Source: a virus | Taxonomy: Duplodnaviria > Heunggongvirae > Uroviricota > Caudoviricetes | Virus record (IMG/VR): IMGVR_UViG_3300021400_000141 | Location: 257,354-321,353 of that record | Length of the DNA: 64,000 nt | Reading direction: 5' to 3' (one strand) | Shown here: positions 1,281-60,646 of the stretch, one piece after another | Position numbering within the stretch: position 1 is the first letter of the stretch | How the letters are laid out: every line of letters starts with the position of its first letter | Translations under genes and position numbers: made by a program | Notes under the pieces: model-generated | Told to the model about the DNA's origin: nothing | Databases searched by the model: none | What the model saw: only the letters and a program-made list of their open reading frames with translations

Positions 1281-2015
1281 ATGAACGAGAAAAAGATATT
1301 TATGGAAGCCGTAGGCAACATTGGACTGAACGCATTGCAGTACGATAGCGTTTCTCGTCTGTATGACGTATGCTTTGAGGCTACTATGAATGACCTTTCT
1401 GGTCCAGTAGACAATCTCAGGAAATACAGAAGCAAGACGCTAATGTTCCACTTCAATGACCTGACGATGGACAAGACTACTGGACACGCTGTTGTTCACT
1501 TTGTCGTTCCGTCGGCCAGTGGCGATAAGAACTATGATGTCTACATCGAATTCATCCCGCCGCAAGGAACTTTGTTCAGCATGGCACAGGGTCCGATGAC
1601 CCCGGCCAAGAAGATTGGGTTGCTTCGCTCGTGCGATGTAAAGGTGTTCTGCACCTGTCCAGACTTCAACTGGTCTGGTATGAAATACAACCTTAAACAT
1701 ATCTATGACAGTTATCTGTCTGGATACGAGTCCATTGAGGGCGTCCCTTCTGGAGGCGAGGACATTCCGCCTAATGTAAAGGACCCGCATCATAAGAATA
1801 GGGTTTGCAAGCATGTCCTCGCCGCATTCTCAGCAGTGATGACGAACTGGATGCGTATCATCAAGGCTGCCAAGGAGTACCGTGTTCCTGCAAATGCACC
1901 TACTCCTGCAGAGGAAACCCCGATAGAACAGACGGTTGAGGAAACGCCTACGGTAGCACCTGATACCAATCCCGTTCCCGATGAGAATATCTCAGAGGAC
2001 GAGAACGGAATTTAG
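1281..2015 (+). CDS. SWIM zinc-finger protein carrying the shared N-terminal leader
   Basis: CTCPDF...VCKHVLAAF matches SWIM CxC...CxH; ATG at 1281. Confidence 0.75.
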   Translation: MNEKKIFMEAVGNIGLNALQYDSVSRLYDVCFEATMNDLSGPVDNLRKYRSKTLMFHFNDLTMDKTTGHAVVHFVVPSASGDKNYDVYIEFIPPQGTLFSMAQGPMTPAKKIGLLRSCDVKVFCTCPDFNWSGMKYNLKHIYDSYLSGYESIEGVPSGGEDIPPNVKDPHHKNRVCKHVLAAFSAVMTNWMRIIKAAKEYRVPANAPTPAEETPIEQTVEETPTVAPDTNPVPDENISEDENGI

Positions 2016-2039
2016 GCGAAAAAACATATTTTAGTGTAT

Positions 2040-2065
2040 GAGCCAGCATCGCTCGATGCTGGCTC
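2040..2065 (+). terminator. Stem-loop, probable intrinsic terminator
   Basis: GAGCCAGCATCG-CT-CGATGCTGGCTC perfect inverted repeat after the gene end. Confidence 0.6.
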
Positions 2066-2077
2066 GACGTTTTCCGT

Positions 2078-2086
2078 TATAAACTA
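2078..2086 (+). promoter_or_regulatory. TATAAACTA late-promoter-like motif (one of 15 exact copies)
   Basis: Recurs just upstream of many structural-type genes; resembles the T4 late promoter TATAAATA. Confidence 0.7.
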
Positions 2087-2105
2087 TATACGAATGTAAT
2101 GATTA

Positions 2106-2300
2106 TTGTGGTTTTCGGTAATGGCAATACCAGGACTTAAAGACAATGACGCACGCTCGCTGATAAGCTACCTGCTTAACGGTGACTCCACAAACGTGGA
2201 GAAGCTGGTCAATGCCTATATGGAGTCTGCGTATAGCATCTGTACGAAAGAGAAGACCAAGATAGTCATGGAAAGTATTAACTCACCCAGGAAGGTGTGA
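2106..2300 (+). CDS. Small hypothetical protein
   Basis: Short ORF between the late motif and the protease gene; overlaps the next start. Confidence 0.5.
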   Translation: MWFSVMAIPGLKDNDARSLISYLLNGDSTNVEKLVNAYMESAYSICTKEKTKIVMESINSPRKV

Positions 2301-3043
2301 GTAGGGGAAGCGTCATGGGAAAGATGCGTGAAATCATTGGCGTACCGAATTTCAACGACAGCAAGGTATCTGTCGCGGAACGCACCGACTTGTATGGAAA
2401 TAAGGTAAAGAGGCTCATTCTTGAAGGCACGGCCATTGTGTGTGACGAACCAGGCATTAACGGTCGTTCATATCCTCGTGCAATCATCGCAAGGGAAGTT
2501 GAAAAACTGAACAGGACGAAGATTCGCCTTGGCCGTCTTGCCGCTGAGTTGAACCACCCACGTGTCGATATCGAGGGAAACCCGAAGGATTACCCAATCT
2601 TTGAAATGAACCTGTGGAAGACCTGTGCAGTCATCGAAGAACTCCGTATGGACGGAAAGAACCTGTACTGCCGAATGGTCGTTGCCGAGGATACTGATGC
2701 AGGACGTAACCTCGCTGGCCTAATCAAGGCTGGCTACACACCTGGATACTCTCTGCGTGGTGCTGGCGATACCATCAAGCTTCCTACTGGCTACGAAGAA
2801 ATTGACCCTGACTATACATTGATTACTGTTGACGTTGTTGGAAACCCGAGCTTCGATAACAAGGCCCTCATCACAAGCCACTTCGAAAGCGACGCTGGCA
2901 AGAGAAAGGCGCACAAGGTTCTTACCGAGTGCATCGAACGCTACGGAAAGGAAATTGTGCTTAACCGCAATATGGATTTCCGCACCGACATGTACCATGT
3001 ATACAACAGGGAAGCTCTACTCAACAATCTGCGTAATAGGTGA
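2297..3043 (+). CDS. Prohead core protease (T4 gp21-like)
   Basis: GINGRSYP, ELNHP and GYSLRGAG motifs typical of gp21-family proteases. Confidence 0.85.
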   Translation: MSRGSVMGKMREIIGVPNFNDSKVSVAERTDLYGNKVKRLILEGTAIVCDEPGINGRSYPRAIIAREVEKLNRTKIRLGRLAAELNHPRVDIEGNPKDYPIFEMNLWKTCAVIEELRMDGKNLYCRMVVAEDTDAGRNLAGLIKAGYTPGYSLRGAGDTIKLPTGYEEIDPDYTLITVDVVGNPSFDNKALITSHFESDAGKRKAHKVLTECIERYGKEIVLNRNMDFRTDMYHVYNREALLNNLRNR

Positions 3044-3999
3044 TACATATGCAACTGGCAGACTTTTTAACACAAGATGAACTCGGCAGTATCGACCCTG
3101 GTATTGTAACCAAGATTGAATCGAATTGCAATAAGGCGATAGCTGACTACGAGGCGAAGGGCGACCGGCAATTCAAGTCCTTGGTCGAGGCGGTATCGGG
3201 ACAATTCGATGCATTGGTTAAGCCTGCTGTCCAGAAAAAGGTTGACAGCATGGGCGAAAATGCTGTCAAGGGCAAGCTGTTCGAGGCTTTGCAGAAGATT
3301 GTAAATGTCCTTGAAGAATGCCAGATAGAAACGACGCAGGAAAGGGAAGCCAAGAAGACGGTTGCACAGTTGAAGGCTGAACTTCAGGAAAAGGTGGTCG
3401 AATACAAGCGTGCTATGAAGCAGCTTATGTATGCCAAGATTGCCGATAAGGTCCTCCGTGAAACTAACGGTTATCGTCCAGACCTCCAACAGAAGGCTGT
3501 GGAATACTTCACTGACCCGAAGCGTGATATTTCCCTAGACGACCTGAAACGTGAAGACATCTTCAACTATATCAACGGCGTCGATGACAACAAGACGACG
3601 AGCAGCGAGTTTAGCGGCATCGGCGAAATCAAGGCTCCAAACCAAGTTGATATGAACGAACTGAACGAGATAGCCGACAGTCTGATGCACGATGACATCG
3701 AAGAAAACGGGCTGGAGAACTATCGCAAGAACAACCTCAAAGTGAACGAAGTTAGATATCCCGCTGGTGGAAACGCTGCTGTCAGCAAAAGGATGCGTCC
3801 TGCACCCAAACTGGCCTCCGTAGGCTTCGGCAGCAAGTCTGCTGCATTTGAAGCCCTTGGGCAGGGACTATCCCAGAACAAGGTGTATAACAGCCCTGAT
3901 GTGACCAAGGAAATGCTCTCCCAGCCTACGTCGCTGGAACCAGATGTTTCCGATGATGATGTCAGGCAGGCAATGAATGCGATGAACGTGTTCATCTAA
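3040..3999 (+). CDS. Probable prohead scaffold/core protein (gp22-like)
   Basis: Coiled-coil-like sequence directly after and overlapping the protease gene, as in T4 gene order. Confidence 0.5.
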   Translation: MIHMQLADFLTQDELGSIDPGIVTKIESNCNKAIADYEAKGDRQFKSLVEAVSGQFDALVKPAVQKKVDSMGENAVKGKLFEALQKIVNVLEECQIETTQEREAKKTVAQLKAELQEKVVEYKRAMKQLMYAKIADKVLRETNGYRPDLQQKAVEYFTDPKRDISLDDLKREDIFNYINGVDDNKTTSSEFSGIGEIKAPNQVDMNELNEIADSLMHDDIEENGLENYRKNNLKVNEVRYPAGGNAAVSKRMRPAPKLASVGFGSKSAAFEALGQGLSQNKVYNSPDVTKEMLSQPTSLEPDVSDDDVRQAMNAMNVFI

Positions 4000-4080
4000 C
4001 CAGTTTCCACTTTACACCAAACGAATGGGGCGTCCTATCTCACGGGGATGCCCCATTCAAATATTGTATTTTAAAAGACG

Positions 4081-6420: not shown

Positions 6421-6440
6421 ACTATGAATGATTAGACTAC

Positions 6441-8021
6441 ATGTCGGAGTTCATAGGTATGAATAACAACAGCACGTTTGCGTACGTCCACACGGAAAGC
6501 GGCCCAATCAAGCCTGCCAAGGCTGTTCCCATCCAGACGATGAGGAACATTATTGCATCTATTCAGGGCAATCATGTCCGTGGAGAAAAGGGTACTAACT
6601 GGGCTGACCTCGCCAAGAAGGTTAACAAGGATTGCAACCCTCATGGGTACACTACGATACAGACTATTTTGAACAAGGCCTTGACCGAGGCTGCAACCCA
6701 GGCTGTTGGCCAGTCTGTATTCCGTCTCGACCTTGGTAACGTTGTGTGCGATTCTGCTCATGCCAAGTTCAAGATGGTCAGAAGGAACCATTCTGTCATC
6801 GTTGACATGCTCTATCCGAACGACAACGGAAACATCACGATTAGGTATAACGTTGACGACGTTGCCGAGAAGATGTTTGAACTATCCCTTGATTCTGAGC
6901 ATTATATCAATGGCTTTGGTCATACAATCATCAAGTGCTGTGACGATGCAATCAAGGAAGCAGAGGAAATGACGGAAGAGGACGATATCTATTCCACTGA
7001 CGAGTATGGATACCAGCCGATAATGTCTGCCGATATGCGTGGTCTTCTGCAAATGACCAATGCAATAATGGAAGCCGATATGGGTGGCGGTGCTGATGCT
7101 GGCTTTGGTGAAGCTGATTTTGCCGCTGCTCCTGCAGACGGTGGTATGGGTGCTGCTGACCAAGGCGGTGGTATGGGTGCTGCTGACCAAGGCGGTGGCG
7201 CAGGTGCTGGAACTGCTAATCTTGGTGGTAACCTGGAGCATGCTGAAGACAAGGTTACGAATTTTGTCGAAGAGTTGAAACAGGGTCTTAACACAGATAT
7301 CAACGGAAGTCTTGGCAAGATTATGAACATCGTTGCCGACAAGAAGGCCGAAGCATCCAAAGAAAACGCTAGCGGTGAACATTTGACGGCAAAGCAAATT
7401 CGTGATGGTATTCCTCCAATGAATTTGAGAGAGAATACCGATACATTGCTTGAAGAATTTAAAGGATTCTACGAGGCGTTCGATGAGACGAAGCCTGACC
7501 CGATGACAAAGAAGGAAATGAAAGCCTTGCTCGATTTCCTTGATAATAACGACGTAAATTCTGCTATGGATTTCGAGGCATGGTTGTTCAGCAATCCTAT
7601 GATGAAGGACCTATTTAAGAGGAATAACATTGGCCTTCAGGGTACTGCGACTAAGGACAATATGGATGTTAATGCTCTTCCTGATGATGGAACGGCAAAT
7701 ACAGGTGAACAGCCTGCTGGTGATGACTTTGGTGGTGGCGACTTCGGTGGTGGCGGAGATTTCGGTGCTCCTGCTGCTGGAGATTTCGGTGCCCCTGCTG
7801 GTGGAGGAGACTTCGGTGCTGGTGGTGACTTCGGTGCTGGCGATATGGGTACTGATATTGCAGACCAGCCTTTTGGTACTGAGACTGCTCCAGGTGGCGA
7901 CACTACAATCAATGACCTAGGGGAAGTTGACAAGATTAGCGAAAACACGAGTACAGAACTTCCTAACCTTGGCGGAGAAACTGCCGAACAACCAGTAGAT
8001 GAAACTGCACCTCAGGCATAA
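6441..8021 (+). CDS. Acidic Gly-rich low-complexity protein, probably virion-associated
   Basis: 526-aa ORF with GGMGAADQG x2 and GGDFG repeats; TATAAACTA at 6416. Confidence 0.65.
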   Translation: MSEFIGMNNNSTFAYVHTESGPIKPAKAVPIQTMRNIIASIQGNHVRGEKGTNWADLAKKVNKDCNPHGYTTIQTILNKALTEAATQAVGQSVFRLDLGNVVCDSAHAKFKMVRRNHSVIVDMLYPNDNGNITIRYNVDDVAEKMFELSLDSEHYINGFGHTIIKCCDDAIKEAEEMTEEDDIYSTDEYGYQPIMSADMRGLLQMTNAIMEADMGGGADAGFGEADFAAAPADGGMGAADQGGGMGAADQGGGAGAGTANLGGNLEHAEDKVTNFVEELKQGLNTDINGSLGKIMNIVADKKAEASKENASGEHLTAKQIRDGIPPMNLRENTDTLLEEFKGFYEAFDETKPDPMTKKEMKALLDFLDNNDVNSAMDFEAWLFSNPMMKDLFKRNNIGLQGTATKDNMDVNALPDDGTANTGEQPAGDDFGGGDFGGGGDFGAPAAGDFGAPAGGGDFGAGGDFGAGDMGTDIADQPFGTETAPGGDTTINDLGEVDKISENTSTELPNLGGETAEQPVDETAPQA

Positions 8022-13454: not shown

Positions 13455-13547
13455 TGGAATTAATGCTACTCGATGGGCATCGTGCTTATGCACGGTGCCT
13501 TTCTACGTTATAAACTATAAGTGAAAATTAACCGATGATAGGCTACC

Positions 13548-16500
13548 ATGTTTAGCAAGAAAGAGGTTTTTGAGAATTATCTGGGAAAGCTCGGATTGAA
13601 TAAGACGGCTTTTGAGGCGGTCAAGGATATCAACGGCGTTCTGTTCGAAGGTCTGGACGACCTGCTTGGTGACTTGGAAAATGAGGTCAACCAGGAAGAT
13701 GGTGATGAAGAAGTTGCCCCTGTTCCTGAGTTTACTACTCCACCTGAAAAGAAAAACGAATACGACTCTATCGAGCTGGAAGGAAAGTATAGGATACCGT
13801 TCGGCGAGGCGATTAACCTGGCAATGATGTGGGCTAAGAAACAACCTAGATTTAGCCAGTTCTGGGATAACGATGGTGGATTTAAAAGTCCGTCGTATAT
13901 GTTGACATCGGAGTCAGGGGAACAAGAGTTTTATAGTAAAGATAGAGTTCCGTACGTGGTACACACGGAACGTGACGAGTCTGTGCCAAAGGCTGAATAT
14001 GAAACGGCTACCAACTATGTCAAAATGAGCTCGGAAGTTTACGACAGGGTAATGAAATACTATGAAGAGCAGGGCTATGACGACCTGACAGAAGTACCCT
14101 TCGATGACATCAAGCATTTGGTTCTTGGAAATGCTATACACCAGACTGGAACAGAAGCTCCAAACATCGGTATTGAATGTACGGTTGAAATCGACCCGTC
14201 GGTAACCCTGTTGACGACGCAAGTTGAGAACAGGGACCCGAAAAATGGTCTCCTTGTTATCATACCAGGTGAGCAGCAAAAACTCAGCGAGGAAACAGGC
14301 CTTCCAGTTGACGGACTTTACACTGCCGTGCTGAGGGAATGGACTGATTATAGCGACCAATACTATTGGGATTCCCAGACAGGATTTATCTATGATGTGA
14401 CGAAAAAGTCGGATGCTCATCAAATGACAAGAGAGGGCACTCTGACCCCGTCCAAGATTAAGAAGGAGCATTCATTGGCTCTGGGCAGAAAGGTTATTGA
14501 CTGGGCCAGAACACAGGACATGTTCAAACTGCTTCTGAAGCCAAGGGGTGCGGATACTCTTATATACACGAGTTCCATACACAAGGTGCCCAACGATGGT
14601 AATATCGAGGGTGTCGGTAACGCTCCTTATGTATACATGGATGATGAGAATTATGAGAGTTTTGTCAATAGCACCAACTTTGACACTGAGAGAGTAAAAC
14701 ACTTTGATGCAAACTCATTGAACCAGATTGTTTCTAAGGAGTACAAGGATAGAAGCTTGACCAATACTGTTGGTTCGAACGATTATGGTTATGATGATAA
14801 CGGCTGGGTTACTAGCATTGCATGTGTATTGGATGATAAGTCTGGTGTATACACATTGGCGAACGGTGTTGCTAGCCAGATTATAAAGGCGTATGGTAGG
14901 AAGGTTGAAGGTTACAACAACTATATCGCTGGCAAAAACAGTATCACCGTAGGTGAACATAGTTTCCATCCGCTTGTTCTTTTGAGCACGTCTAGGGGTG
15001 GGTTGTATCCACGGCTTGTTGCATTTTTCGATGAGACTTGCTGCAAGCCTGGTGAATCGATAGAACAGCTTGTTGGTGCAAAGGGCATGAGGGGTGGAGT
15101 TCCTACCATTCAGGGTTTTGCTACAATCATGGGTGGATGCAAGTTGGCATCTGATGGCGAGGTTGAGATTAACCAATGCACGCTAAGCAATGTGGACATA
15201 TCTGGAAGCACAGGTCGAGTAAGAATTGGTTCTCGCCCTAGTAAAAAAGGTGCATCACTCTTGGAAACTCGTGTGGAAGATACTGTCATTGCTGTTGGAA
15301 ACAATGGTGCAGACCAGGTTTTGCCGAATAACAGGATTTATGCCGAAATGAATGGCGGCATACGTGGTGTATCTATTGTAAAATCGTTTATTGTAGACGC
15401 ACACATTTCTAACGGCTATGCTCAAATCGAGGACTGTAATATACAGCACCTTAACATGAGTAATGATGGCCCGAAACACCTTGATGGCTGGAATACTGAG
15501 GATGCCAGCAACGTCGTGTTTAAGGGAGATAACTTGATTACCATTACAGGAACTGCTAACTACCTGAATGGTTATAACAAGAGTACCATCCCTGGCGGAA
15601 GGGCTGTAAAGGATTGGAAGAAAGGTGAAGTTACAACGGAATTGACGGGTGAAGTCACGTTGGATTCTACATCAGGTACTGTGGTATGTAGAGGTTCTAA
15701 ATTGCATAACGTTGTTGCGAATGGACCTTGCGGCATCAGCAGCTGCACTTTGAAGGGTGCGACTATTGGTGTTAACGCCCTTGGTGGTAACGGAAACTTC
15801 GAAAAGACCGAGATGAACTGTGTCAACACAACACCTGCTGTTGACGGTGCTTGGGGTATTCAAATCGAACACGGTACGGATGGAAACGCTACTGTGTTTG
15901 GTATGGGTACTGATACAACGCCTGGAATGATTGAACTGTCTGGAAGGGTGTATATTGAAGGCGGTGCCAAAATACTGCATTCTCTTGTAGCTAGCACTGA
16001 GGATGGCCAAACGGTGTATGTCCGCAGCAACATGACGTTGAACGGATGTTCTCCATATACTCTCAACAAGAAAGATTCAGGCATTCTCAGTAAGTATCTA
16101 AGAAGTGATACTAACCTTAGGGGAGACTGCACGGATATCACTAAGATTGCGAATACCTTGGACTTTGAGTTCAACGCATTCGGTGGTGAAAACTCTCTCG
16201 CTCTCTACGCAGACTTCAAGGCTGGTAAACAAGATGAGTCGATGAAAAAGAATCTTACCCTGTTCGATGCGGACACGCTTATCGATGACTTCTTGGTGGA
16301 TACGTCTTCTATCTTGATGGATAGTAGCGTGCTCATGGGTATGGACGGTGATGGTAACATCATTCCGAACGAGAGTTTGAAGAGGACCATATGGGACCCG
16401 ATTGGTGGATTCTTTGTCGGTCCTGTCAACGAGAAGATTGACGCCAGAGGAAGAAAAGTTAAAAATTACGGCTCCATGATTCTGTTGAAGTGCCCTAACG

Positions 16501-17588
16501 TTGTGTTGGACCACGAAGCGATTCTTCGAAAGAAGGATGAATTTGTGCAAAACATGGACTTTGACATGTATGCTGCTGGAAAGATTACTCTAAGGGAATA
16601 TGTGGACTTCTTGGATAAGAATGGATTTAGTGATTGCTACCATTATGCGAACAATGGATTTGGTAAGGAATTCGTGCAGCTCTGTCAAATCAGCAAGACT
16701 GATATGAGGACTCCACGTAATCTCTCGATGGCAGCTATGAAAACTCTCATTGAGAACTCAAAGCGTATTATCGACCAGTTCATTCATGAACATACGACGA
16801 ACAATACGACCATTCGTAATGCTGATAATTATTCCAGAATTACATCGGCGTATACTAATAAGGATGGCGCTATGACGGTAGAAACTGGGCATGGACAAGC
16901 CACATACCAATACACAATTCCTCGTGTTGACGATGAGAAACACACTATTGTATGCTCATGTACTAAAAAAGTGCAATCGGGTGAGGGTCCTGCTCAGGTA
17001 GAGACGTATCAGGTGGATTGCTCACGTGATGCCATATACAAGGCTGGCTATCAGTACATGTGTGATAACAATTTCACTTCAAATGCTGATGGGCTTGCTG
17101 TTATCAGGAAGGCAGTTTTTGGTAATGTCGATGGCTTGGGTAAGCATAACTACGTTGCATCTGCTTTAAATGCAATGAAGGGCACTGAAATGAAGTCCAA
17201 TGAACTTGACCCTGAAACTTCAGATAAATTGAACAAGATACTGAGCAAGCTGAATTTGGAAAAGAACGAAAAGGTGTATCGTCTTGATGAAACTACGAGT
17301 GAAGGTGAGCACATATGGTTCCTTGTCAAGGCCAAGCCTATTTACCTTAGCAAGCTTGACAGGGAGAAGTACAGGCTGAGAGGCATTACACCGTTGAATG
17401 TTTGCCACATCCTGAAGTACTTGCCCAAAAAGGATACCTTTGCTTGTGCAAGCAAATATGTTCCTAAGAACGTAAAGATGAAAGATAACCTACAGGCATC
17501 TTCAATCTACACGTCGGACTATGTGATTGCACGTCCTGTTGCCCTGCAAGACTTCTACAAGATGGGTGTACCGAAAGAAGCTGTGTAG
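13548..17588 (+). CDS. 1346-aa protein with the shared N-terminal leader and a probable beta-solenoid region
   Basis: Long ORF; leader ends LFEG; central I/V/N/G-rich repeats; TATAAACTA at 13509. Confidence 0.7.
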   Translation: MFSKKEVFENYLGKLGLNKTAFEAVKDINGVLFEGLDDLLGDLENEVNQEDGDEEVAPVPEFTTPPEKKNEYDSIELEGKYRIPFGEAINLAMMWAKKQPRFSQFWDNDGGFKSPSYMLTSESGEQEFYSKDRVPYVVHTERDESVPKAEYETATNYVKMSSEVYDRVMKYYEEQGYDDLTEVPFDDIKHLVLGNAIHQTGTEAPNIGIECTVEIDPSVTLLTTQVENRDPKNGLLVIIPGEQQKLSEETGLPVDGLYTAVLREWTDYSDQYYWDSQTGFIYDVTKKSDAHQMTREGTLTPSKIKKEHSLALGRKVIDWARTQDMFKLLLKPRGADTLIYTSSIHKVPNDGNIEGVGNAPYVYMDDENYESFVNSTNFDTERVKHFDANSLNQIVSKEYKDRSLTNTVGSNDYGYDDNGWVTSIACVLDDKSGVYTLANGVASQIIKAYGRKVEGYNNYIAGKNSITVGEHSFHPLVLLSTSRGGLYPRLVAFFDETCCKPGESIEQLVGAKGMRGGVPTIQGFATIMGGCKLASDGEVEINQCTLSNVDISGSTGRVRIGSRPSKKGASLLETRVEDTVIAVGNNGADQVLPNNRIYAEMNGGIRGVSIVKSFIVDAHISNGYAQIEDCNIQHLNMSNDGPKHLDGWNTEDASNVVFKGDNLITITGTANYLNGYNKSTIPGGRAVKDWKKGEVTTELTGEVTLDSTSGTVVCRGSKLHNVVANGPCGISSCTLKGATIGVNALGGNGNFEKTEMNCVNTTPAVDGAWGIQIEHGTDGNATVFGMGTDTTPGMIELSGRVYIEGGAKILHSLVASTEDGQTVYVRSNMTLNGCSPYTLNKKDSGILSKYLRSDTNLRGDCTDITKIANTLDFEFNAFGGENSLALYADFKAGKQDESMKKNLTLFDADTLIDDFLVDTSSILMDSSVLMGMDGDGNIIPNESLKRTIWDPIGGFFVGPVNEKIDARGRKVKNYGSMILLKCPNVVLDHEAILRKKDEFVQNMDFDMYAAGKITLREYVDFLDKNGFSDCYHYANNGFGKEFVQLCQISKTDMRTPRNLSMAAMKTLIENSKRIIDQFIHEHTTNNTTIRNADNYSRITSAYTNKDGAMTVETGHGQATYQYTIPRVDDEKHTIVCSCTKKVQSGEGPAQVETYQVDCSRDAIYKAGYQYMCDNNFTSNADGLAVIRKAVFGNVDGLGKHNYVASALNAMKGTEMKSNELDPETSDKLNKILSKLNLEKNEKVYRLDETTSEGEHIWFLVKAKPIYLSKLDREKYRLRGITPLNVCHILKYLPKKDTFACASKYVPKNVKMKDNLQASSIYTSDYVIARPVALQDFYKMGVPKEAV

Positions 17589-17683: not shown

Positions 17684-18478
17684 GTGGATTACTGTAAGAT
17701 AACACCATGTATAAAGGCAGAACTTAACAAATCGGTTACAATGAGTCGGGAGGAGGAGCGTCGGCTGTTTGAGGAGTATGCTAACAGCACAGATGATACC
17801 CGAAAGAAGGAAATCTTTGACAAGATTATCATAGCTAACCTGAAATTTGCGTTCAAGATGGCCAGTGACAAGGCAAAGGAATGCGACAAGTCCATCGATG
17901 ACTTGTTTTCAGAGGCTAAAATCGGTTTGATTGAAGCTTTTAACAAGTATGACCCCCATGTGGGCACGAAATTCATCTCATTTGTCGTGTGGTATGTACG
18001 TCGTGCGTTGAATACATTCGTTTCAGACGACGACTTAATCAGAATTCCTATCGCATTGAAGGCAAACGTATCCAAGAAGCGTCGCCTCAACGAGACGGAA
18101 TACACGGAACGTGAAGGTCACGCCAAGGAAGTGATGGCTAACTTGAAGCAGTCAGTCAAGGGTTCCAAGGAAGATGACCAAGACGGCTTTACTAACGAGG
18201 CTCCAGATGTCAGCTCCGACGGAATCGCAGAGCTCGAACACGACAACATGAAGGATACTCTGTGGAAGATGCTGGAAAACAGCCTTGATAAAAATGAACT
18301 CTACATCATGAGGTACTCGTTCGGGTTGAAGGATGATGTCATCCTCCCAGCAGCCGATATTGCTGCAAACCTCAATATGAAGAAAACCGAGTTCCAGAAA
18401 ATCAAGAAGGCGGCATACGAAAAGATAGCCAAAAACAAGGAATTTTATAGTCTTTTGAAAGAGACGGTAAATTCGTAA
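17684..18478 (+). CDS. Phage-encoded sigma70-family RNA polymerase sigma factor
   Basis: Region 2 (NLKFAFKMA...DLFSEAKIGLIEAFNKYDP..GTKFISFVVWYVRRAL) and a region 4 HTH. Confidence 0.9.
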   Translation: MDYCKITPCIKAELNKSVTMSREEERRLFEEYANSTDDTRKKEIFDKIIIANLKFAFKMASDKAKECDKSIDDLFSEAKIGLIEAFNKYDPHVGTKFISFVVWYVRRALNTFVSDDDLIRIPIALKANVSKKRRLNETEYTEREGHAKEVMANLKQSVKGSKEDDQDGFTNEAPDVSSDGIAELEHDNMKDTLWKMLENSLDKNELYIMRYSFGLKDDVILPAADIAANLNMKKTEFQKIKKAAYEKIAKNKEFYSLLKETVNS

Positions 18479-20715: not shown

Positions 20716-21663
20716 TTACGATTCAATCGGTTTGTCCGACCACCGCACTTCGGGACCGCCGTCATACATGTACTTGTCCTTGTAGCCAGTACCGAAGATT
20801 TCATCCATTCGTTCGGCAATGCCCTTGAACAGTTCCTTGTTGTTCGGCTTCAAGTGTCCCTGTTCGTCCATAATCTGGTTCTGGTGCAGGGTCTTCATAT
20901 CCTGATGCATGATGGCGTTGCGGTTTTGCTTTGCGAGCTTTTGACCACGGCTATCTACGGTAGAGATTTGTGCTTCATGCAACTGGTGCATGCCAAGACG
21001 GGTCGTGTCGTATTCTGGAACCATCGTCGGGCAAAGCTTTTCCTTCATAGCACGGTCGCATGCCTCGTTTTCTTTGAGGATTTTCCCGATTGCCATTAGG
21101 GTGTACATCGTTTTCTTGTCGATTTCATCACAAGAGCAGTGCATCCTAGGCCAGCAACCGTCACCGCAGATACGCATTTCGGCACTGTTGTTCGTCGGCT
21201 TTGCCAGTTCGTATCCGTCACCATCATTGGAGACAACGATGAAGATGTGAGGTATGTCCTTGTTTTTCAGTTTAACGGTATCGCCTACTTGGTAAGGTGC
21301 TTCGAAACCAAGGGATTCAAGGGCGTTGATGTCCTTTATCGCATGGATTGTGTTCAGGGTGTTGAGACCAAGGCCACACTCGATGATGTATTCCTTGTCT
21401 TCCTGAGTAAGTTCACTGTCGTCCTTTGAACTGAACAGGGGGCCTTTCTTGGCGTTGATTTCCTTGCCTGAAATACCGTAAGCCTTGTAGAGAGGTTCGG
21501 TTTCGGCGTCGTAAGGACTAGCCTTGACGACGACTGCCATGGTCTCATCGTCTCCTGGGGTTTCATCTTCGTCTGGCGGAAGATTGGCAATGGCCTTGCA
21601 CTGCTGGTTCAACTCTTCGAACTGGGCCTGGGATTCAAAAATGGAAAGTTCGTCGTTGTACAT
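20716..21663 (-). CDS. Hypothetical protein
   Basis: 315-aa ORF; TATAAACTA on the minus strand at 21690. Confidence 0.65.
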   Translation of the reverse strand: MYNDELSIFESQAQFEELNQQCKAIANLPPDEDETPGDDETMAVVVKASPYDAETEPLYKAYGISGKEINAKKGPLFSSKDDSELTQEDKEYIIECGLGLNTLNTIHAIKDINALESLGFEAPYQVGDTVKLKNKDIPHIFIVVSNDGDGYELAKPTNNSAEMRICGDGCWPRMHCSCDEIDKKTMYTLMAIGKILKENEACDRAMKEKLCPTMVPEYDTTRLGMHQLHEAQISTVDSRGQKLAKQNRNAIMHQDMKTLHQNQIMDEQGHLKPNNKELFKGIAERMDEIFGTGYKDKYMYDGGPEVRWSDKPIES

Positions 21664-37527: not shown

Positions 37528-37551
37528 GCAAATAGTTTATAAACTATTGGT

Positions 37552-38082
37552 ATGGACACGAAACTGTTTTTTGAATCTATAGGAAAGCTCGGCCTTTCCG
37601 AGGCTCAGTTGGAAGCCATCAAGCGTCTGCATAAGGCGTGTTTCGAAGGCTTTGAACGAAACCTGCCATTGTCCCCGTCTGAGAACCACAACATACATGA
37701 CGCAATACAGGCACCTATTGCAACAAACAGTTCTCATTCTAACGACATGGGTGCTTACCAGAACCCGATGAACCTTTCCACGAACCCGAACGCAAATCGT
37801 GACCCGAAAGAGGAAATGAAGAAGCTGTTCCCCCCAGGCAAGATTGTGTGGCAGCGTGAAAAGATTCAGCCGAATCCTAAAATAAAGGAGATGATGGATG
37901 CGGCGAACAAGCGTATTCCTCAAAGATACCCAGTCGCCAATTTCAACGCTTCTAACTTGCCGATGGTATGTGGATACGCTGCACCGAACAGGATGAACTA
38001 CTCTCCGTACAAACAGGGTTGTGCTGTTGGTGTTTACGATGGTGGCGGCGGTGGCGGTGCTGCTGGCGGCCCGACGGTATAG
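37552..38082 (+). CDS. Hypothetical protein with the shared N-terminal leader
   Basis: MDTKLFFESIGKLGLSEAQLEAIKRLHKACFEG. Confidence 0.7.
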   Translation: MDTKLFFESIGKLGLSEAQLEAIKRLHKACFEGFERNLPLSPSENHNIHDAIQAPIATNSSHSNDMGAYQNPMNLSTNPNANRDPKEEMKKLFPPGKIVWQREKIQPNPKIKEMMDAANKRIPQRYPVANFNASNLPMVCGYAAPNRMNYSPYKQGCAVGVYDGGGGGGAAGGPTV

Positions 38083-38083
38083 T

Positions 38084-38812
38084 ATGTACAACGTAACAAC
38101 AAAAAAGAACCGAGCTATCGAATACTTGGTAATTCATTATACCGCTGGTACGAGTTCCAAGGCTGGAACGGCAAAGTGGATTGCAACTTCTTTTGGAAAG
38201 CAGTCCAAAAAAGCAAGCGCTGACTTTATAGTAGACCAAGCTGAGGTTGTACAGTTTAATCCAGACATAAGGAACCAGTATTGCTGGGCAGTTGGTGACA
38301 AGTTATACAAGACATTTACCACATCGCTTGGTGGAACCTTGTACAAGAAGGCGTGTAACGCCAACTGCATTTCTATTGAGATGTGTTCTGACAAGAAGAA
38401 TACCAAGTCTCTTAAAGTGACTGATACTGACTGGATTATTTCGGACAAGGTTATCGAACGTACCGCATTGCTTGCAAAGAAGCTCATGAAGGAATACGAT
38501 ATTCCTCTCGACCACGTAATCATGCACCATTGCATTAGCGGAAAACAATGCCCGCAACCGTGGACGAGGGACGAGGATAGCCTTTCTAACTGGTATGACT
38601 TTCTGAAAATCATCGGCAAAGAAAAGCTTCCGAGAAACCCGTTGTATTCTGGTATGACAACGGCCAACCTGAATTGCCGTGAAGCACCCATTGTAGGTGA
38701 TGTCGTAACGAAATACGAGAAGGACACCCAGATAAGCATTTATGCCGAGAGGCGTGGGTGGGGCCGAACCACTGACGGGTGGGTTTCACTCAACTATGTT
38801 GAACGTATATGA
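38084..38812 (+). CDS. N-acetylmuramoyl-L-alanine amidase (Amidase_2) with C-terminal SH3b domain
   Basis: YLVIHYTA, NANCISIEMC, VIMHH..SGKQCP; C-terminal LNCREAP...GWGRTTDGWVSLNYV. Confidence 0.85.
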   Translation: MYNVTTKKNRAIEYLVIHYTAGTSSKAGTAKWIATSFGKQSKKASADFIVDQAEVVQFNPDIRNQYCWAVGDKLYKTFTTSLGGTLYKKACNANCISIEMCSDKKNTKSLKVTDTDWIISDKVIERTALLAKKLMKEYDIPLDHVIMHHCISGKQCPQPWTRDEDSLSNWYDFLKIIGKEKLPRNPLYSGMTTANLNCREAPIVGDVVTKYEKDTQISIYAERRGWGRTTDGWVSLNYVERI

Positions 38813-38904: not shown

Positions 38905-39102
38905 TCATGTAGTTTCGACCGACGAATTACCGTCGCCAAGGTCTTTGTCAACGGACTTCCAGTCCTTCTCGACGTATTGAGGCTCGTCGTCGTTATCCTC
39001 TTGGAACGCTACGTCGTGAAGTTCTTCGATAACTGATTCCATTGCCGCTGGCAAGTTCAACTTTCTGATTTCTGCTTCGAACATTTGTTTCTTCAATGAC
39101 AT
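38905..39102 (-). CDS. Small protein consisting mostly of the shared leader
   Basis: MSLKKQMFEAEIRKLNLPAAMESVIEELHDVAFQE. Confidence 0.55.
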   Translation of the reverse strand: MSLKKQMFEAEIRKLNLPAAMESVIEELHDVAFQEDNDDEPQYVEKDWKSVDKDLGDGNSSVETT

Positions 39103-39111: not shown

Positions 39112-39891
39112 CTAGATTGCTCCGAGACGCTTTGCCTCGTCGATGTCTCTCTTGTTCATAATGTAGTAGCCGTTACGGTTCTCTTCCGTATTGTTCTTTA
39201 ATGCACCGAACCTGTAACGATAAGCGTCGATGTCGTGCGGTGCTGCTGTTCCCGTCACTTCAAGCTCGTGCATGGGAACGAACTGCTCGGCAAACTGGTT
39301 CATATCGGCTTCGTTCTTGAAACGGATTACGTCAACCTTGCTGTCGTTGTCCTTGTCCTTGATGAACATTAGTCTGGACTCGCTCAGCTCGTCGTATTCC
39401 TTCTTGTTCTTCATGAGGTCGTCTGCGTGGCGTGCCTTCATGCTCGAATCGTTTGTCGTGGTCACGTTGTATTTGCCGCCAGACATGCGGTTGATTTCGT
39501 TCATCTTGTTCGTGAACGATGTTCCGTGCATGTTGGAACCCCACTGTGCCTTCGGGATGGTTACGTACTGCCAGATGTGAATCATTTCGTGAAGCAGGAC
39601 TTCCTCCGCCTCAGTCTCGGTGATGTCGTTAAAATAACTAGACAGACGGATTTTCAGTTGACTTACGAAGTTGTCTCCTACTGAAATGCTTCCTGCGGAC
39701 GGCCTGTTGCTGACGATGCACGAAGCGTCGCCGACAGCGTTTTGCGTTCCAGACATCTCGAACTTGATGTCCTTCGGGAGCTTCCCGCCAAAGAACCGAG
39801 AGTTGAACTCGTCGTACTTCCGTTTAGCCCACTCGCTGGATATACGAAGGTTCGTGTCCAGCTTGTCGATGCGTTCAAAAAGAGAATTCAT
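39112..39891 (-). CDS. SprT-like zinc metalloprotease
   Basis: YDEFNSRFFGGKLP and LLHEMIH (HExxH), MHGTSF. Confidence 0.85.
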   Translation of the reverse strand: MNSLFERIDKLDTNLRISSEWAKRKYDEFNSRFFGGKLPKDIKFEMSGTQNAVGDASCIVSNRPSAGSISVGDNFVSQLKIRLSSYFNDITETEAEEVLLHEMIHIWQYVTIPKAQWGSNMHGTSFTNKMNEINRMSGGKYNVTTTNDSSMKARHADDLMKNKKEYDELSESRLMFIKDKDNDSKVDVIRFKNEADMNQFAEQFVPMHELEVTGTAAPHDIDAYRYRFGALKNNTEENRNGYYIMNKRDIDEAKRLGAI

Positions 39892-39929
39892 TTTACAACC
39901 TCTATCTGTTTACAGTTTATAAACTCTAT

Positions 39930-54258: not shown

Positions 54259-54280
54259 ATGAAATTTTACATTTAAGGTG

Positions 54281-55888: not shown

Positions 55889-55900
55889 TTGGAGGTTCTT

Positions 55901-56287
55901 ATGGAAGAAGAGGAACTTAAAGATTTGAGCATCGATGTCAAGGAATGGTTCTTGGACCAGGTTGAAATCGATTGCGATTGCATGAATGTTGAGAGCGAAG
56001 CCGAAGGCGATGATGACAGCGAGGTTGTCATCACTGTAGGATATCATTCCAAGGACTGGTCGGTTGCCGACCCTGATGGAAGGACATTCGAAACGGAAAC
56101 TGCTCTTGAAGAGTACTTGAAGGAGAAGATTTCCGCTGACCTGGAAGATGTTCTCTCTCATTACGATGTGGAATATTCCAAGTTGGACGTGAATGCCGCT
56201 TCGATGTTTGACTTCTGCGTTACCATCGAAGGAAAGTATGTTCCAAAGGAAGAAACAGACGAAACGGATTCGTCAGACCTTTATTAA
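55901..56287 (+). CDS. Acidic hypothetical protein
   Basis: SD GGAGG; D/E-rich. Confidence 0.65.
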   Translation: MEEEELKDLSIDVKEWFLDQVEIDCDCMNVESEAEGDDDSEVVITVGYHSKDWSVADPDGRTFETETALEEYLKEKISADLEDVLSHYDVEYSKLDVNAASMFDFCVTIEGKYVPKEETDETDSSDLY

Positions 56288-56302
56288 CCGAAGAGGATTA
56301 AA

Positions 56303-56740
56303 ATGAAAGAAGTACAAATCAAAATCAAGTATCTTGACGACAGCATCAAGCGTTTGACCTACGTGGAAGGCAAGTCCGACTGGATTGACTTGGCCTCCGC
56401 TGAAACTGTCACGTTGAAGAAGGGAGAATTCAAGCTTATCCACCTTGGCGTTGCTATGGAGCTTCCCGAAGGTTACGAAGCTCATATCGCCCCCCGTAGT
56501 TCTACGTTCAAGAACTTCAAGATTCTTGAAACGAACAGCGTCGGTGTTGTTGACCGTTCCTACTGTGGCCCGAACGACTGGTGGAAGATGGCTGTGTACG
56601 CAACGGAAGACACCACCATCAACAAGGGTGACCGCATTGCACAGTTCCGCATCATTGAAAACCAGCCGAAGCTGAACTTTGTCGAATCCGAACTGACTGG
56701 TCAAGACCGTGGTGGTTTCGGCTCTACTGGCAAAAATTAA
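56303..56740 (+). CDS. dut: dUTPase (trimeric type)
   Basis: [28 protein letters not shown]. Confidence 0.93.
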
Positions 56741-56953
56741 TCGGATTTTTTCGATATATAAACAATAGGATGAGTGTCAGCGAAGTGTGTCGCCATCATA
56801 TTGGCATGGGGCCGTCGCTGGCACTTATCTTATTTTAGCCTATCTGCAAGTGTAGAAAAGGTTTCTGGGGTCGTCAGAGCAATCTGGCGGCCCCTGTTTT
56901 TGTCTTGTGTCTTCCCAAAGATATAAACCCTTATTAGGTGCACAGGAGCCCTC

Positions 56954-57346
56954 ATGAAAGAGCTAATTAAATCGCTTACGTCCATGGGCCTTACGGTAAC
57001 CAGGGATGGGATGATAATCTATGACAACATCACATTTGGCAAATTTGATTCAAGCGGGAGACCAGCAATATATTGCTACCCATTCATATGCTGGGATGAT
57101 GACCAAGACAAGGAATGGCTCGATTCAAGCGAAAGCATCAGCGTAGATGACGAGTTCTACGACTATTACGAACAGTTTTGCGCGGACTACCACAGCCTGT
57201 TCAACTACAACAAGATGGGAGGCATATCCTTGTGTGGAAGTGTGTCCAAGCATGACGTTAACATCGTCGAACTCATCCGTGATGTCCTTCAAATTTATAA
57301 GGAAATTGTACGGGATTTGAGAGAGAAAGCTATCCAAAATTTTTAG
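56954..57346 (+). CDS. Hypothetical protein
   Basis: SD AGGAG; 130 aa. Confidence 0.6.
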   Translation: MKELIKSLTSMGLTVTRDGMIIYDNITFGKFDSSGRPAIYCYPFICWDDDQDKEWLDSSESISVDDEFYDYYEQFCADYHSLFNYNKMGGISLCGSVSKHDVNIVELIRDVLQIYKEIVRDLREKAIQNF

Positions 57347-57404
57347 TCTGAACAGGCCCGAAACTATAAACTAAGGGTATGGTTAGATACCCGAGGGTAA
57401 GTAT

Positions 57405-57833
57405 ATGGCAGAAATGTGGATAGCGGCGTTGAAGACTAACAGTCCAGTGTTGCTGATATTCACGTTGGTTGCTCTTGGATTGTTTTATCTCATCAAGCGG
57501 ATTGAAACACAAAGGAAGGATACAGGGGTTAAACGCAACGAACAATTCGGTCAAGTGGAAAAGAAGTTCCTTGAAATGCAACTGGAATACCAGAAGAAGG
57601 AGTCTGCTTACAGGGAGCAGCTTATTATTCTGGAAAACAAGATTTCATTGACCCAGAAGGATGTCGATGGTGTAAAGGACAAATTGAAGATTGTGGACTC
57701 TAAATTAGAGCAGATTACTACGACCTTGAATGCCATCAACGATACCCTGTCGGGTATCAAATCGACTTTATCCACATCGTTGATTGCGCTTGAAAAACGA
57801 ATTGAAAGAGTGGAAAACACAAAAGATGATTAA
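57405..57833 (+). CDS. Membrane-anchored coiled-coil protein
   Basis: TM segment VLLIFTLVALGLFYLI then heptads; TATAAACTA at 57365. Confidence 0.65.
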   Translation: MAEMWIAALKTNSPVLLIFTLVALGLFYLIKRIETQRKDTGVKRNEQFGQVEKKFLEMQLEYQKKESAYREQLIILENKISLTQKDVDGVKDKLKIVDSKLEQITTTLNAINDTLSGIKSTLSTSLIALEKRIERVENTKDD

Positions 57834-57848
57834 AACTGAGGGGGATGT

Positions 57849-58589
57849 ATGAGCTGTGGATGCAACAACGGGAAACCGAACGAAGTTTATGACAGGATGC
57901 CATACATGAGGCAGACCCCGACGCATCATCATTGCTGCCCGCCACCGCCTCCACTGTTTATGCCGTTCCAGCCGCCACCATGGTTTGGACCGTGCTTTCC
58001 GCCTCCACCGAGGCAGGCTGGCCCGTGGGAGTACACTCCATCGAGAATGTATCCAGGCCCTCCTCCTTGCGGATGCGGTCCTCTTCCACATATTCCTCCA
58101 CCATACCCACATTTTTGGCCGCATCCGTGGCACCAGCCCTATTTCAGAGGTCCGACCTTCCGTTACCAGTGCATGCCTCAACAGGCTCCTGTATGCGGTT
58201 GTATGGGGCCAGTAGGACCTATGCCGCCTCACCCGCATCATGACTGCGGATGCCATCCTAGACCTATATGGCCGAACCCAATAGGCCCGATGCCTCCTAT
58301 ACCGCCGAGACCGCTTCCACCTCCTCCACCAGACAAGCCTGAGATAGCTCTCCATCCGAGACGCATAGTTGCATCAGTTCCTACTGAACATCACGAGGCA
58401 AGCATAGTCGAATACAGCAACGGACACTTCGACGTGATTGCAAATGGATATGTACCAGTAGGTGGTGGACGCAACAACGGCCCGAAGTGCTGGCATGCCC
58501 AGGACATTCGTGGAAACATCTCCGACTCCGAAGGTCTCGACACGGTCAACTTCCAGTTCAACACGTCTGATGCAGGGTCAAGTTTCTAA
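57849..58589 (+). CDS. Pro/Cys/His-rich low-complexity protein
   Basis: CGC repeats, HHHCC and poly-Pro; SD GAGGGG. Confidence 0.6.
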   Translation: MSCGCNNGKPNEVYDRMPYMRQTPTHHHCCPPPPPLFMPFQPPPWFGPCFPPPPRQAGPWEYTPSRMYPGPPPCGCGPLPHIPPPYPHFWPHPWHQPYFRGPTFRYQCMPQQAPVCGCMGPVGPMPPHPHHDCGCHPRPIWPNPIGPMPPIPPRPLPPPPPDKPEIALHPRRIVASVPTEHHEASIVEYSNGHFDVIANGYVPVGGGRNNGPKCWHAQDIRGNISDSEGLDTVNFQFNTSDAGSSF

Positions 58590-59005
58590 TGGATAAGCAT
58601 TCAACATTTGTCGATACTGTCAAGAAGCTCGGACTGGATGCTTATGTCTTTGAGTGCATTGCTAGTATTCACAAGGCGTGTTTTGAACAGGTTGCTTTCG
58701 ACGTGAATGCAAAGCCAAATCCAGAATCCCCTATTCCTTGGAGGCATACAGGACAGATAAACCGTCTGCCAAGCCTTATGGGAAAGAAAGAAGTTGGATA
58801 CGACAATGCAAACTCGGAGTGGTTCCCAGAGAGCAAGGTGGCGACTGACGACCCTACTGTTAAAAACCTGATTGCCTCATCGAAGGAAAGCCAGATGGGA
58901 TATCGTGTTGGAACATGGGGCGGACCAGGACGCACAGTCCTCGGAAAGAGTTCTGCGCTCTCGAACGAAAACATCTGCGCGGACACGAGTTCAAGCCAGA
59001 CCTAA
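58589..59005 (+). CDS. Hypothetical protein with the shared N-terminal leader
   Basis: FVDTVKKLGLDAYVFECIASIHKACFEQ. Confidence 0.7.
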   Translation: MDKHSTFVDTVKKLGLDAYVFECIASIHKACFEQVAFDVNAKPNPESPIPWRHTGQINRLPSLMGKKEVGYDNANSEWFPESKVATDDPTVKNLIASSKESQMGYRVGTWGGPGRTVLGKSSALSNENICADTSSSQT

Positions 59006-59056
59006 ATGAAAAAGCAATCGGAAATACGATTGCTTTTCTGTTTTAATTCCATTTAA

Positions 59057-59914
59057 TTATCGGTTGACCGATTCCATTATGTTGCACAGCGACTCGAACT
59101 GTTTCTTTGGCAAGTCCTTGTACTTGTAGAGAAGCTTGGCACAACGGTTCTTGTATTCGTCCGTGTATTTTGCCATGCCCTTCATCTTATCGACTGTGTC
59201 ACGGAACTTCTTCATGGCTTCGTCGGCATTCTCGTCCCAGTCGTCGCAGATGAACTTAGTGTTGACTGGAATATCAAGCTCGTCATAGCCCACCATATTG
59301 TTATTCACGGCCTTTATCTTTTCAACCTTCACCTTGGTTACTGGCTGTATGTCCTTGACCTTCAGGAATTCTGGGGTGTTCTTTATTTTCGGAAACTTTT
59401 TATCGTCGGTAGTGGGGTCAGCGACTGCGTTGATGATGTTTCTTGTTTGTCTAGGCTTTGCTATCTTTGAAACATTGTTGTTAAACATTTTCTTGACTTG
59501 ATTTGCCTTATTGTCCCACGAATCTTCGTCTGACTCTCCATTGCGGATTTTAGTGATTTCTTCTTTGACGGTTTCTTTTAGAGACTCGGGCATATCGACT
59601 TCGGTGACAACGCCGTTCTTCTTCATTACCTCAGCTGCACCAGACACCTTCGGTTTAAGGGCGGTATCCTTGCTGGGTTTCACTTCATTGAAATCCTTCT
59701 TTTCTTCGGTTTCAACGAACGATGCGCTGGCTGGATTGTCGTCATCCCCACCAGTAAACTTCTTTGCTTCTGCTGTCGCTTTCAGTTCGACAGGCCTCAT
59801 GAGGCTCGTGTAACTGCCGCAAGGGTCGTCTTCAGGAAGGTCTGCGACCAAGTCAAACAAATTCTTGTAATTTTCAATGAATTCCATAATATACCGAGTG
59901 GCTATATTTACCAA
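59057..59914 (-). CDS. Hypothetical protein
   Basis: 285-aa ORF; TATAAACTA on the minus strand at 59915. Confidence 0.6.
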   Translation of the reverse strand: MVNIATRYIMEFIENYKNLFDLVADLPEDDPCGSYTSLMRPVELKATAEAKKFTGGDDDNPASASFVETEEKKDFNEVKPSKDTALKPKVSGAAEVMKKNGVVTEVDMPESLKETVKEEITKIRNGESDEDSWDNKANQVKKMFNNNVSKIAKPRQTRNIINAVADPTTDDKKFPKIKNTPEFLKVKDIQPVTKVKVEKIKAVNNNMVGYDELDIPVNTKFICDDWDENADEAMKKFRDTVDKMKGMAKYTDEYKNRCAKLLYKYKDLPKKQFESLCNIMESVNR

Positions 59915-59995
59915 TAGTTTATAACCTTTTTTCGCTTAGGATTAAAGATTGAAGTATATAAACTATATGCAGAATGACAATTGTAGGATACAATA

Positions 59996-60646
59996 ATGTC
60001 CAATGTAGAAACCTTTAAATACTACGCTTCTCAGCTGAATTTGACCAAACCCCAGCTGGAAGCAGTCACGGATTGCTTCAAGGCCTGCTTTGAAGCCGAT
60101 GGAACCAACGATACTGGTTTGTACGCTAATGAGCAGCAAGGTAATGTGAACGTTGGTAAAAAACCCACCAAGTTCGACGATAGCGCTACACCTTGGCCTG
60201 AGGAAACGAAGAATATCTTCGAACTTCCTTCTTACATGAATAACCGCAAGAGACTTGGTACTGGTACTAAGCTGGATGCCAGGACTCAGGCCAACCTGAA
60301 CAAGATGGCGGCTAATGCTCGTGACGGAATGTACCAGAACAACGTCTATCAGGTCGAAAAGATACAGAAAGAAGATAAGGCCCTTGAACAGCAGCGTCAG
60401 CGTGTTATGAAGCAACAGAAAGAGTTGAACCAAGCATTGGGTATTAACCTTGCTGTTGACGGCATCATGGGCCCTCAAACACAGGCTGCAATGAAAAAGT
60501 ATGAGGCTATGAAGGCTGCTAAGCAACAGCAACAAGCTCAACCTGCACCACAGGAACAACAAACTGCTAACAAGCCAGCTACACCTCCCAACGTTGACTG
60601 GAACAAGTATCATTCTGGACAAGCAGCGGGTCACAACGTAAAGTAA
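59996..60646 (+). CDS. Protein with the shared leader and a peptidoglycan-binding-like motif
   Basis: QLEAVTDCFKACFEA leader; LAVDGIMGPQTQAAMKKY resembles PG_binding_1. Confidence 0.65.
   Translation: MSNVETFKYYASQLNLTKPQLEAVTDCFKACFEADGTNDTGLYANEQQGNVNVGKKPTKFDDSATPWPEETKNIFELPSYMNNRKRLGTGTKLDARTQANLNKMAANARDGMYQNNVYQVEKIQKEDKALEQQRQRVMKQQKELNQALGINLAVDGIMGPQTQAAMKKYEAMKAAKQQQQAQPAPQEQQTANKPATPPNVDWNKYHSGQAAGHNVK

Follow-up and report, generated by a model that had tools for sequence, protein, structure and literature searches.

In bacteriophage T4, a capsid targeting sequence (CTS) formed by the first 10 residues loads internal proteins, or foreign proteins fused to it, into the scaffolding core and is removed by the protease gp21; residues 4 and 7 act in targeting and residues 8 and 10 in processing, and this tag is all that the internal proteins of T-even phages have in common (PMC9026906, PMC3012670). 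The internal proteins of T4 are basic (PMC9026906), and its propeptides are 10–20 residues long (PMC5694885). Proteases of the gp21 type all cut after Glu (PMC5694885), with a P3 residue that differs by lineage: L/I in T4, A in SPN3US, and S/A/G in phiKZ (PMC5694885, PMC10052503). The giant phages phiKZ, 201phi2-1, and SPN3US have a gp21-related protease that cuts many of their head proteins after Glu, and they load ejection proteins in bulk (PMC5694885, PMC10052503). Their propeptides are mostly 111–254 residues long, belong to no single shared family, and carry the motif A/S/G-x-E; only 8–9 of the ~50 head proteins are cut. Here we examine an N-terminal leader shared by unrelated proteins in a 64,000-nucleotide stretch of viral DNA (the window), bases 257354–321353 of one 419,423-bp record with direct terminal repeats (IMGVR_UViG_3300021400_000141). 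An earlier note, made from the window alone, had seen this leader on six open reading frames (ORFs) and taken it for a modular tag that directs diverse cargo into the capsid and is then cleaved off. We find that the leader marks a larger family and is probably a capsid-targeting propeptide. The literature that we searched held no paper that connects huge phages or megaphages with such a capsid targeting tag. Positions below refer to the window unless they are marked as genome positions.

A shared leader marks at least 20 proteins

All six leader peptides of the earlier note are found where it had placed them. A hidden Markov model (HMM) built from them was run against the six-frame, stop-to-stop ORF set of the whole 419-kb genome and against reversed and shuffled versions of this set. 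It matched 14 ORFs at E<1e-3, namely the six window leaders and eight new ORFs, and none in the reversed or shuffled sets, and HMMs built from shuffled leaders gave zero matches. Since the matches are absent from reversed and shuffled ORFs, chance is excluded as the source of the shared leader and the family is real. Three more search rounds brought it to 20 members in this genome, so that the shared leader stands but a family of six does not: it has at least 20. In 19 of the 20, the match starts within a few residues of the ORF-start ATG, the exception being an internal copy. The proteins are otherwise unrelated, as had been claimed: when the 20 cargos, as we call what lies beyond the leader, were compared all against all by BLAST at E<0.01, one marginal 52-residue match was the only result.

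A profile of the 20 leaders retrieved 134 clusters at E<1e-3 among 1.84 billion protein representatives, and the leader is N-terminal in 103 of the 130 cluster representatives that carry a clear one. All 10 clusters that were looked up come from metagenome assemblies. Together with the 20 proteins of the phage itself, these 130 representatives make up 150 leader-bearing sequences, which fall into ~46 cargo families. A broader and shorter tag, defined by the pattern M-x(1-8)-[LIVMFT]-[FL]-x?-E-[SAGNQ], was also tried and set aside as too loose to count, since it occurs in 29 of 529 genes against 1.6% of internal Met positions and yields few, weak candidates.

In the window, leader protein 1 (244 aa; 1281–2015, + strand) is read from an ATG three codons inside a GTG ORF starting at 1272, and its leader (residues 1–33; 1281–1379) ends in VCFE↓ATM, where the arrow marks the candidate cut. 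Leader proteins 2 (1346 aa; 13548–17588, +), 3 (176 aa; 37552–38082, +), and 5 (138 aa; 58589–59005, +) have orphan cargos, and their leaders span residues 1–34 (13548–13649, ending in VLFE↓G), 1–32 (37552–37647, ACFE↓G), and 1–33 (58589–58687, ACFE↓Q), respectively. Leader mini-protein 4 (65 aa; 38905–39102, −) consists of a leader of approximately residues 1–35 (38998–39102, AFQE↓D) and an acidic tail of 30 residues. Leader protein 6 (216 aa; 59996–60646, +), with its leader in residues 1–33 (59996–60094, ACFE↓A), has a cargo with weak peptidoglycan-binding and endolysin-like matches, which are below curated cut-offs.

Leader anatomy and candidate cut site

The leader has the consensus M-x(3-5)-[L/I]-F-x-E-x(3)-K-L-G-L-x(3)-Q-x-E-A-V-x(2)-L-H-x-A-C-F-E and is predicted to form two helices. 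The earlier description, ~33 residues ending near FE, holds with two adjustments: the length ranges from 30 to 36 residues, and the 65-residue protein at 39102 has its final Glu displaced by one residue toward the C terminus (AFQE). An AlphaFold2 model of the PG_binding family displays one helix over residues 2–12, a short turn, and a second helix over residues 17–33, with a predicted local distance difference test score (pLDDT) of 63–70, and is disordered thereafter. The same two helices recur in the low-confidence model of leader protein 1 (pLDDT 47), which was too poor for a fold search.

Site statistics were computed on the 130 cluster representatives with a clear leader, all from public metagenomes. 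Glu occupies P1 in 84% of the leaders and L, F, M, or Y occupies P2 in 98%, and the residue at P1′ is A, S, or G in 79%. At P3, Cys is found in 68% and Leu/Ile in 18%, with L, I, A, or V wherever Cys is absent, and P4 is A, V, or I. The candidate site thus reads [A/V/I]-[C/L/I/A]-[F/L/M/Y]-E, followed by A, S, or G. At the other end of the leader, a Phe near position 7 is invariant. Outside the leaders, the pattern [AVIT]-C-[FLMY]-E-[ASG] finds two further sites only, too few to define the specificity of a protease.

Conservation changes abruptly at this site. In the PG_binding family, pairwise identity is 81% without gaps over the leader, 31% over the next 15 residues, and 21–39% elsewhere, apart from the PG-binding repeats (66%). 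Leaders of one subtype are ~80% identical on average among representatives that are <50% identical overall, and leaders of different members are ~28–46% identical, all at the protein level. The sharp drop after the Glu means that the leader is under stronger constraint than the cargos and that this constraint ends at the Glu. The 25 residues that follow are enriched in Asp/Glu (28% vs 13% in the proteome) and in disorder-prone residues (58% vs 38%), as in a flexible, acidic linker. When we sought an uncharged hydrophobic core of ~10 residues or more or an RR motif in the leaders, we found none; a charged residue occurs every 3–8 positions. With these charges and no hydrophobic core, the leader is not a signal of the Sec, twin-arginine translocation (Tat), or signal-arrest-release (SAR) type. 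The leader of a ribosomally synthesized and posttranslationally modified peptide (RiPP) was considered as well and rejected, since in place of a short core peptide the cargos range from 30 to 1312 residues and include folded enzymes.

Head genes and their leader-bearing neighbors

On the evidence of its genes, the 419-kb uncultured phage is a member of the T4 superfamily, because it has a Gp23-family capsid, a T4-type portal, a gp15-like neck protein, and a Peptidase_S77 protease. Megablast, queried with 20 kb taken from the window, found no match in a set of 50,697 phage records. The major capsid gene (genome 199256–200746; PF07068, 2e-65) encodes a protein ~31% identical to capsid proteins of T4-like phages, and its N-terminal region parallels that of T4 gp23, with the predicted site FLPE↓S in place of FLTE↓A, the gp21 maturation site of the T4 protein. 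The portal gene lies at genome 196945–198213 (PF07230, 1.9e-69).

The protease that the earlier note had placed at 2297 is indeed a homolog of T4 gp21 (2297–3043, +; phrog_207, 2.7e-31; PF03420, 2e-14). In an alignment to the T4 gp21 structure 5JBL, its catalytic His falls in ELNHP, its Ser in GYSLRG, and its Asp in VDVVG. It is the presumed leader-removing enzyme. Directly downstream, at the position of T4 gp22, a scaffold-like helical protein (3040–3999, +) is encoded, and such a gene lies 3′ of the protease in every relative examined. We regard its product as the candidate docking partner of the leader. A likeness between the leader and the N terminus of T4 gp22 (IFES..NISP..VFEA) went no further than the eye, with HMM scores at noise. 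On the other side of the protease lies the gene of a 64-residue protein (2106–2300, +), which resembles the small T4 core proteins gp67 and gp68 in size and layout, contains two hydrophobic-Glu↓Ser sites (AYME↓S and IVME↓S), and is kept in this place in most relatives examined, distant ones included.

Leader genes are interspersed among these head genes. The T4 head gene order is 20-67-68-21-22-23, and the corresponding block is here in two parts, one at 197–201 kb (genome 196945–201444) with the portal, a leader protein, and the capsid gene, and the other at 258–261 kb with a leader protein, the 64-residue protein, the protease, and the scaffold, so that the portal and capsid genes are ~60 kb from those of the protease and scaffold. 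The portal gene is followed by one leader gene; this gene and another flank the capsid gene. One leader gene is two genes 5′ of the protease, with the same placement in four relatives, and four adjoin the gp15-like neck gene. Taken as a whole, the members are scattered over roughly a dozen loci with differing neighbor genes.

In T4, the positions after the portal and before the protease belong to gp67 and gp68; here they are occupied by leader members, leader gene 1 being placed roughly in this way. T4 gp67 has a short helical N-terminal part, FLIE↓G, and a poly-acidic tail, and the same layout is seen in the leader proteins at genome 127245, genome 198442, and window 38905. However, there is no detectable similarity to gp67 or gp68, and the N-terminal part is here common to enzymes and large proteins.

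Leader protein 1 keeps its E↓ATM boundary in four relatives, one of which has a 5-residue insert before the Glu. Its cargo contains an invariant CxC...CxH motif (FCTCPDF ... VCKH), which recalls a SWIM zinc finger and would be unusual for a gene of a head-protease module. The 822-residue gene just 5′ of the protease module in the window is not a portal and has no family match. Farther downstream, a 526-residue protein (6441–8021, +) encoded behind a late box has an acidic, low-complexity second half with Gly-Asp-Phe repeats (GGDFGA...) and could be a second scaffold-like or internal head protein.

Cargos of the leader proteins

Most cargos are orphans, since PHROGs and Pfam name few of them, and look-ups in the ESM Atlas gave nothing usable for naming. 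Those that can be named include an SLT lytic transglycosylase (genome 168586–169779) and a PG_binding_1 protein (genome 172066–174033), both with the leader, and a NUDIX hydrolase with a weaker leader (genome 200860–201444). Two late genes, one for an Amidase_2 protein (genome 137813–138919) and one for a SPOR-domain protein (genome 49294–50544), have degenerate or partial leaders. Many cargos are strongly acidic, with a net charge of −18 to −40, and several members consist of the leader and a poly-acidic tail only.

The internal copy of the leader belongs to a family of its own layout. The ORF is built of five parts: a conserved 55-residue N-terminal module ending in MHIF-x-E, an insert whose length varies from 0 to ~450 residues among relatives, the leader itself, a cargo that is again variable, and a C terminus, ...PEF, that is conserved. 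The cargo holds a second site, TNACME↓G, and the ORF has no Pfam or PHROG match. The product looks like a polyprotein cut at several Glu sites.

Late-promoter-like boxes

The box TATAAACT, which resembles the T4 late promoter TATAAATA, lies 10–40 nt 5′ of 14 of the 20 leader genes. In the window, the earlier statement that several leader genes follow TATAAACTA is borne out for three of the six, with boxes at 13509–13516 (+; 39 nt before the start of leader gene 2), 37538–37545 (+; 6 nt before the ATG of leader gene 3), and 59957–59964 (+; 31 nt before the ATG of leader gene 6). The box is not restricted to leader genes. The 419 kb contain 60 copies, many of the others preceding large genes, and these large genes are probably in many cases structural. 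The box of leader gene 3 is one half of a palindrome, AGTTTATAAACT, found at 37535–37546 and at 39915–39926, which puts TATAAACT on both strands between divergent genes and looks like a shared two-way late promoter. As the ATG of leader gene 3 is only 6 nt past the box, its mRNA may have almost no 5′ leader. Directly 3′ of the gene for the 1346-residue leader protein is a sigma-factor gene (17684–18478, +; Sigma70_r2; phrog_351, 5e-24), whose product is a candidate reader of the TATAAACT boxes.

Several neighboring genes of the window deserve mention. An SprT-like metalloprotease (39112–39891, −; PF10263, 3e-13) is encoded behind a late box and directly 5′ of the gene for leader mini-protein 4; the likeness of its first 12 residues (MNSLFERIDKLD) to the leader is confined to helix 1. 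A 315-residue orphan (20716–21663, −) behind a TATAAACT box (21698) has an N terminus, …LSIFESQAQFEELNQQCKAIANL, that is followed by an acidic run and resembles a degenerate leader, with an HMM match that is not significant. Directly after leader gene 3 comes a leaderless Amidase_2 gene (38021–38812, +), probably an ordinary endolysin, unlike the leader-bearing amidase at genome 137813–138919. Finally, a trypsin-like peptidase gene (60714–61457, −; Trypsin_2, 2.6e-8) is convergent with leader gene 6, and another Trypsin_2 gene lies three genes from a distant leader gene on another contig (L060); the peptidase is a possible second processing enzyme.

Leaders in related phages

A 422-kb relative with a 91% identical protease has 21 leader copies, and a 277-kb partial relative (protease 75% identical) has 13. 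In a 253-kb relative, whose protease is 53% identical, both the leader HMM and jackhmmer pick up just a single protein. We also looked there for a different shared leader by clustering N termini de novo, and rejected it because the clusters consisted only of translated upstream DNA repeats and transposases.

As for the modularity claimed in the earlier note, the picture is mixed. The leader does sit on unrelated cargos, but its subtypes are mostly fixed to cargo families as in orthologous genes. For the SLT cargo, relatives down to 45% identity keep the leader in all 120 cases among the matches listed, and with no leaderless relative among these 120, recent swapping of the tag is not seen on this cargo. 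Judged from such comparisons, the pairs of tag and cargo are old and stable, not freshly shuffled.

Discussion

Taken together, these findings lead us to favor, with some confidence but short of certainty, the reading that the leader is a capsid-targeting propeptide removed by the prohead protease, and a longer, two-helix counterpart of the 10-residue T4 CTS. We do so because of the conserved Glu, the small P1′ residue, the Phe near position 7, the flexible linker, the intact protease, the late boxes, and the head-gene neighbors. Like the CTS of IPI, IPII, and IPIII and the Alt propeptide, the leader is an N-terminal tag common to otherwise unrelated proteins, and its terminal Glu precedes a small residue. 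The phage also resembles T4 in having a gp21-family protease, a Gp23-family capsid, a T4-type portal, and late-promoter-like boxes, and the invariant Phe may be set beside the T4 targeting determinants at residues 4 and 7 (PMC9026906).

By analogy with T4, we infer docking, cleavage, packaging, and ejection as follows. Tagged proteins would be made late in infection from TATAAACT-type promoters, together with the head genes. The leader would dock them on the scaffolding core during prohead assembly, and the gp21-type protease (2297–3043) would then cut behind the conserved Glu that closes helix 2. Some mature cargos, namely the lytic transglycosylase, peptidoglycan binders, amidase, and NUDIX enzyme, would remain in the head and exit with the DNA, and the very acidic, gp67-like cargos would more likely be core filler, degraded or expelled, than be delivered. 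In other phages, enzymes that degrade the cell wall are known to exit the virion together with the DNA, T7 gp16 being an example. Complex prediction with the alignments of the leader and the scaffold gave a score of 0.00, which, as it was run without controls, speaks neither for nor against binding.

A number of observations weigh against this interpretation. The capsid-targeting, cleavable tag of the earlier note gains from the unrelated late proteins, the Glu with a small P1′ residue, and the head-gene neighbors, but loses from the P3 Cys and from a lack of similarity to T4 core proteins. With Cys prevailing over Leu/Ile at P3, the site is not the T4 (L/I)-x-E motif; this Cys and the frequent His four residues before it lie on one helix face (LHxxCFE). 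The leader HMM scored below noise against T4 gp20, 21, 22, 23, 24, 67, 68, Inh, and Hoc, a comparison that did not include IPI-III and Alt. That the leader might be a diverged copy of the N terminus of the phage's own scaffold was suggested by a look-alike seen by eye (ELGSI.P vs KLNISP) and rejected at a profile-profile probability of 0.3%. In contrast to the T4 CTS, the leader has two helices and two to three times the length of T4 propeptides; many cargos are acidic, unlike the basic internal proteins of T4; and one family has the tag inside a longer ORF, the copy in this genome occupying residues 262–296 of a 486-residue ORF (genome 63194–64654). Three relatives whose proteases are 53–59% identical have 0–1 leader copies, so the long leader is specific to one megaphage clade. 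With a trypsin-like gene beside leader gene 6, the cutting enzyme may also be one other than the gp21-type protease.

Some of these features would suit a leader that stays in place. It could be a permanent docking or oligomerization domain on the inner head body, neck, or tail, never removed, with the Glu serving in binding. Such a domain would account for a structured unit of two helices, whose length far exceeds what a protease site requires, and for a P3 residue off the T4 motif, it would fit the four leader genes in the neck and tail region beside the gp15-like gene, and it would have a parallel in SPN3US, most of whose head proteins are uncleaved (PMC10052503). We nevertheless think it unlikely, since conservation falls exactly after a Glu that precedes a small residue, the flexible acidic linker fits a removable piece better, and the cargos consist of enzymes and short acidic tails rather than fibre or spike folds. 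More improbable still is that the shared start reflects inherited paralogy and no common role, whether through old duplications or a 5′ coding element acting in translation or at the RNA level. Leader subtype and cargo family do mostly go together, as they would in ordinary orthologous genes, but within proteins that are otherwise unrelated it is the leader that is best conserved, and 13–21 copies per genome persist in two relatives. RNA-level conservation is not obvious either, given the modest identity between leaders of different members, a comparison made on proteins only.

The cargos themselves raise another prospect, to which we assign a small likelihood: a tag for address or control outside the capsid, such as a pro-sequence keeping cell-wall enzymes inactive, a label for routing to the envelope, or a handle for a modifying enzyme or chaperone, which might be removed by another protease, for instance the trypsin-like enzyme at 60714–61457. 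Five cargos act on or bind peptidoglycan, trypsin-like genes lie beside leader gene 6 and near the distant leader gene described above, and a further N-terminal tag common to several proteins occurs in this genome. Yet the charged leader without a hydrophobic core is unlike any of the export signals considered, a NUDIX enzyme, the 1346-residue orphan, and 30-residue acidic tails would be misfits on an envelope route, and the length of the cargos far exceeds that of RiPP-type core peptides. Moreover, the leader genes are grouped with head genes, and we noticed no one non-head enzyme as their constant neighbor, in the course of work that included no systematic tally of neighbors. A related and slightly less probable idea is that the leader is the address label of a second, undescribed sorting route, toward the envelope or a phage-built structure, where a Glu-directed protease would release the cargo; the cell-wall cargos and the trypsin-like genes near two leader genes would then be its visible parts.

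If the leader is instead a capsid-targeting propeptide, as we favor, the principle is already known from T4 and it is the form that differs. What is new is the long two-helix design, the Cys-aromatic-Glu site, the number of carriers, which is at least 20 per genome and has a strong bias to cell-wall functions, and a family in which the leader is internal. One structured label would then load at least 20 proteins into the head, among them several cell-wall enzymes, far beyond the handful of T4. As a 33-residue folded tag with a defined cut site, it could be used to direct packaging into engineered capsids, a purpose for which the T4 CTS is already in use. With the leader, those proteins of uncultured giant phages that are likely to be delivered or to belong to the core could also be listed from sequence alone, and since most leader proteins are orphans, they would be candidates for roles in early host take-over or anti-defense.

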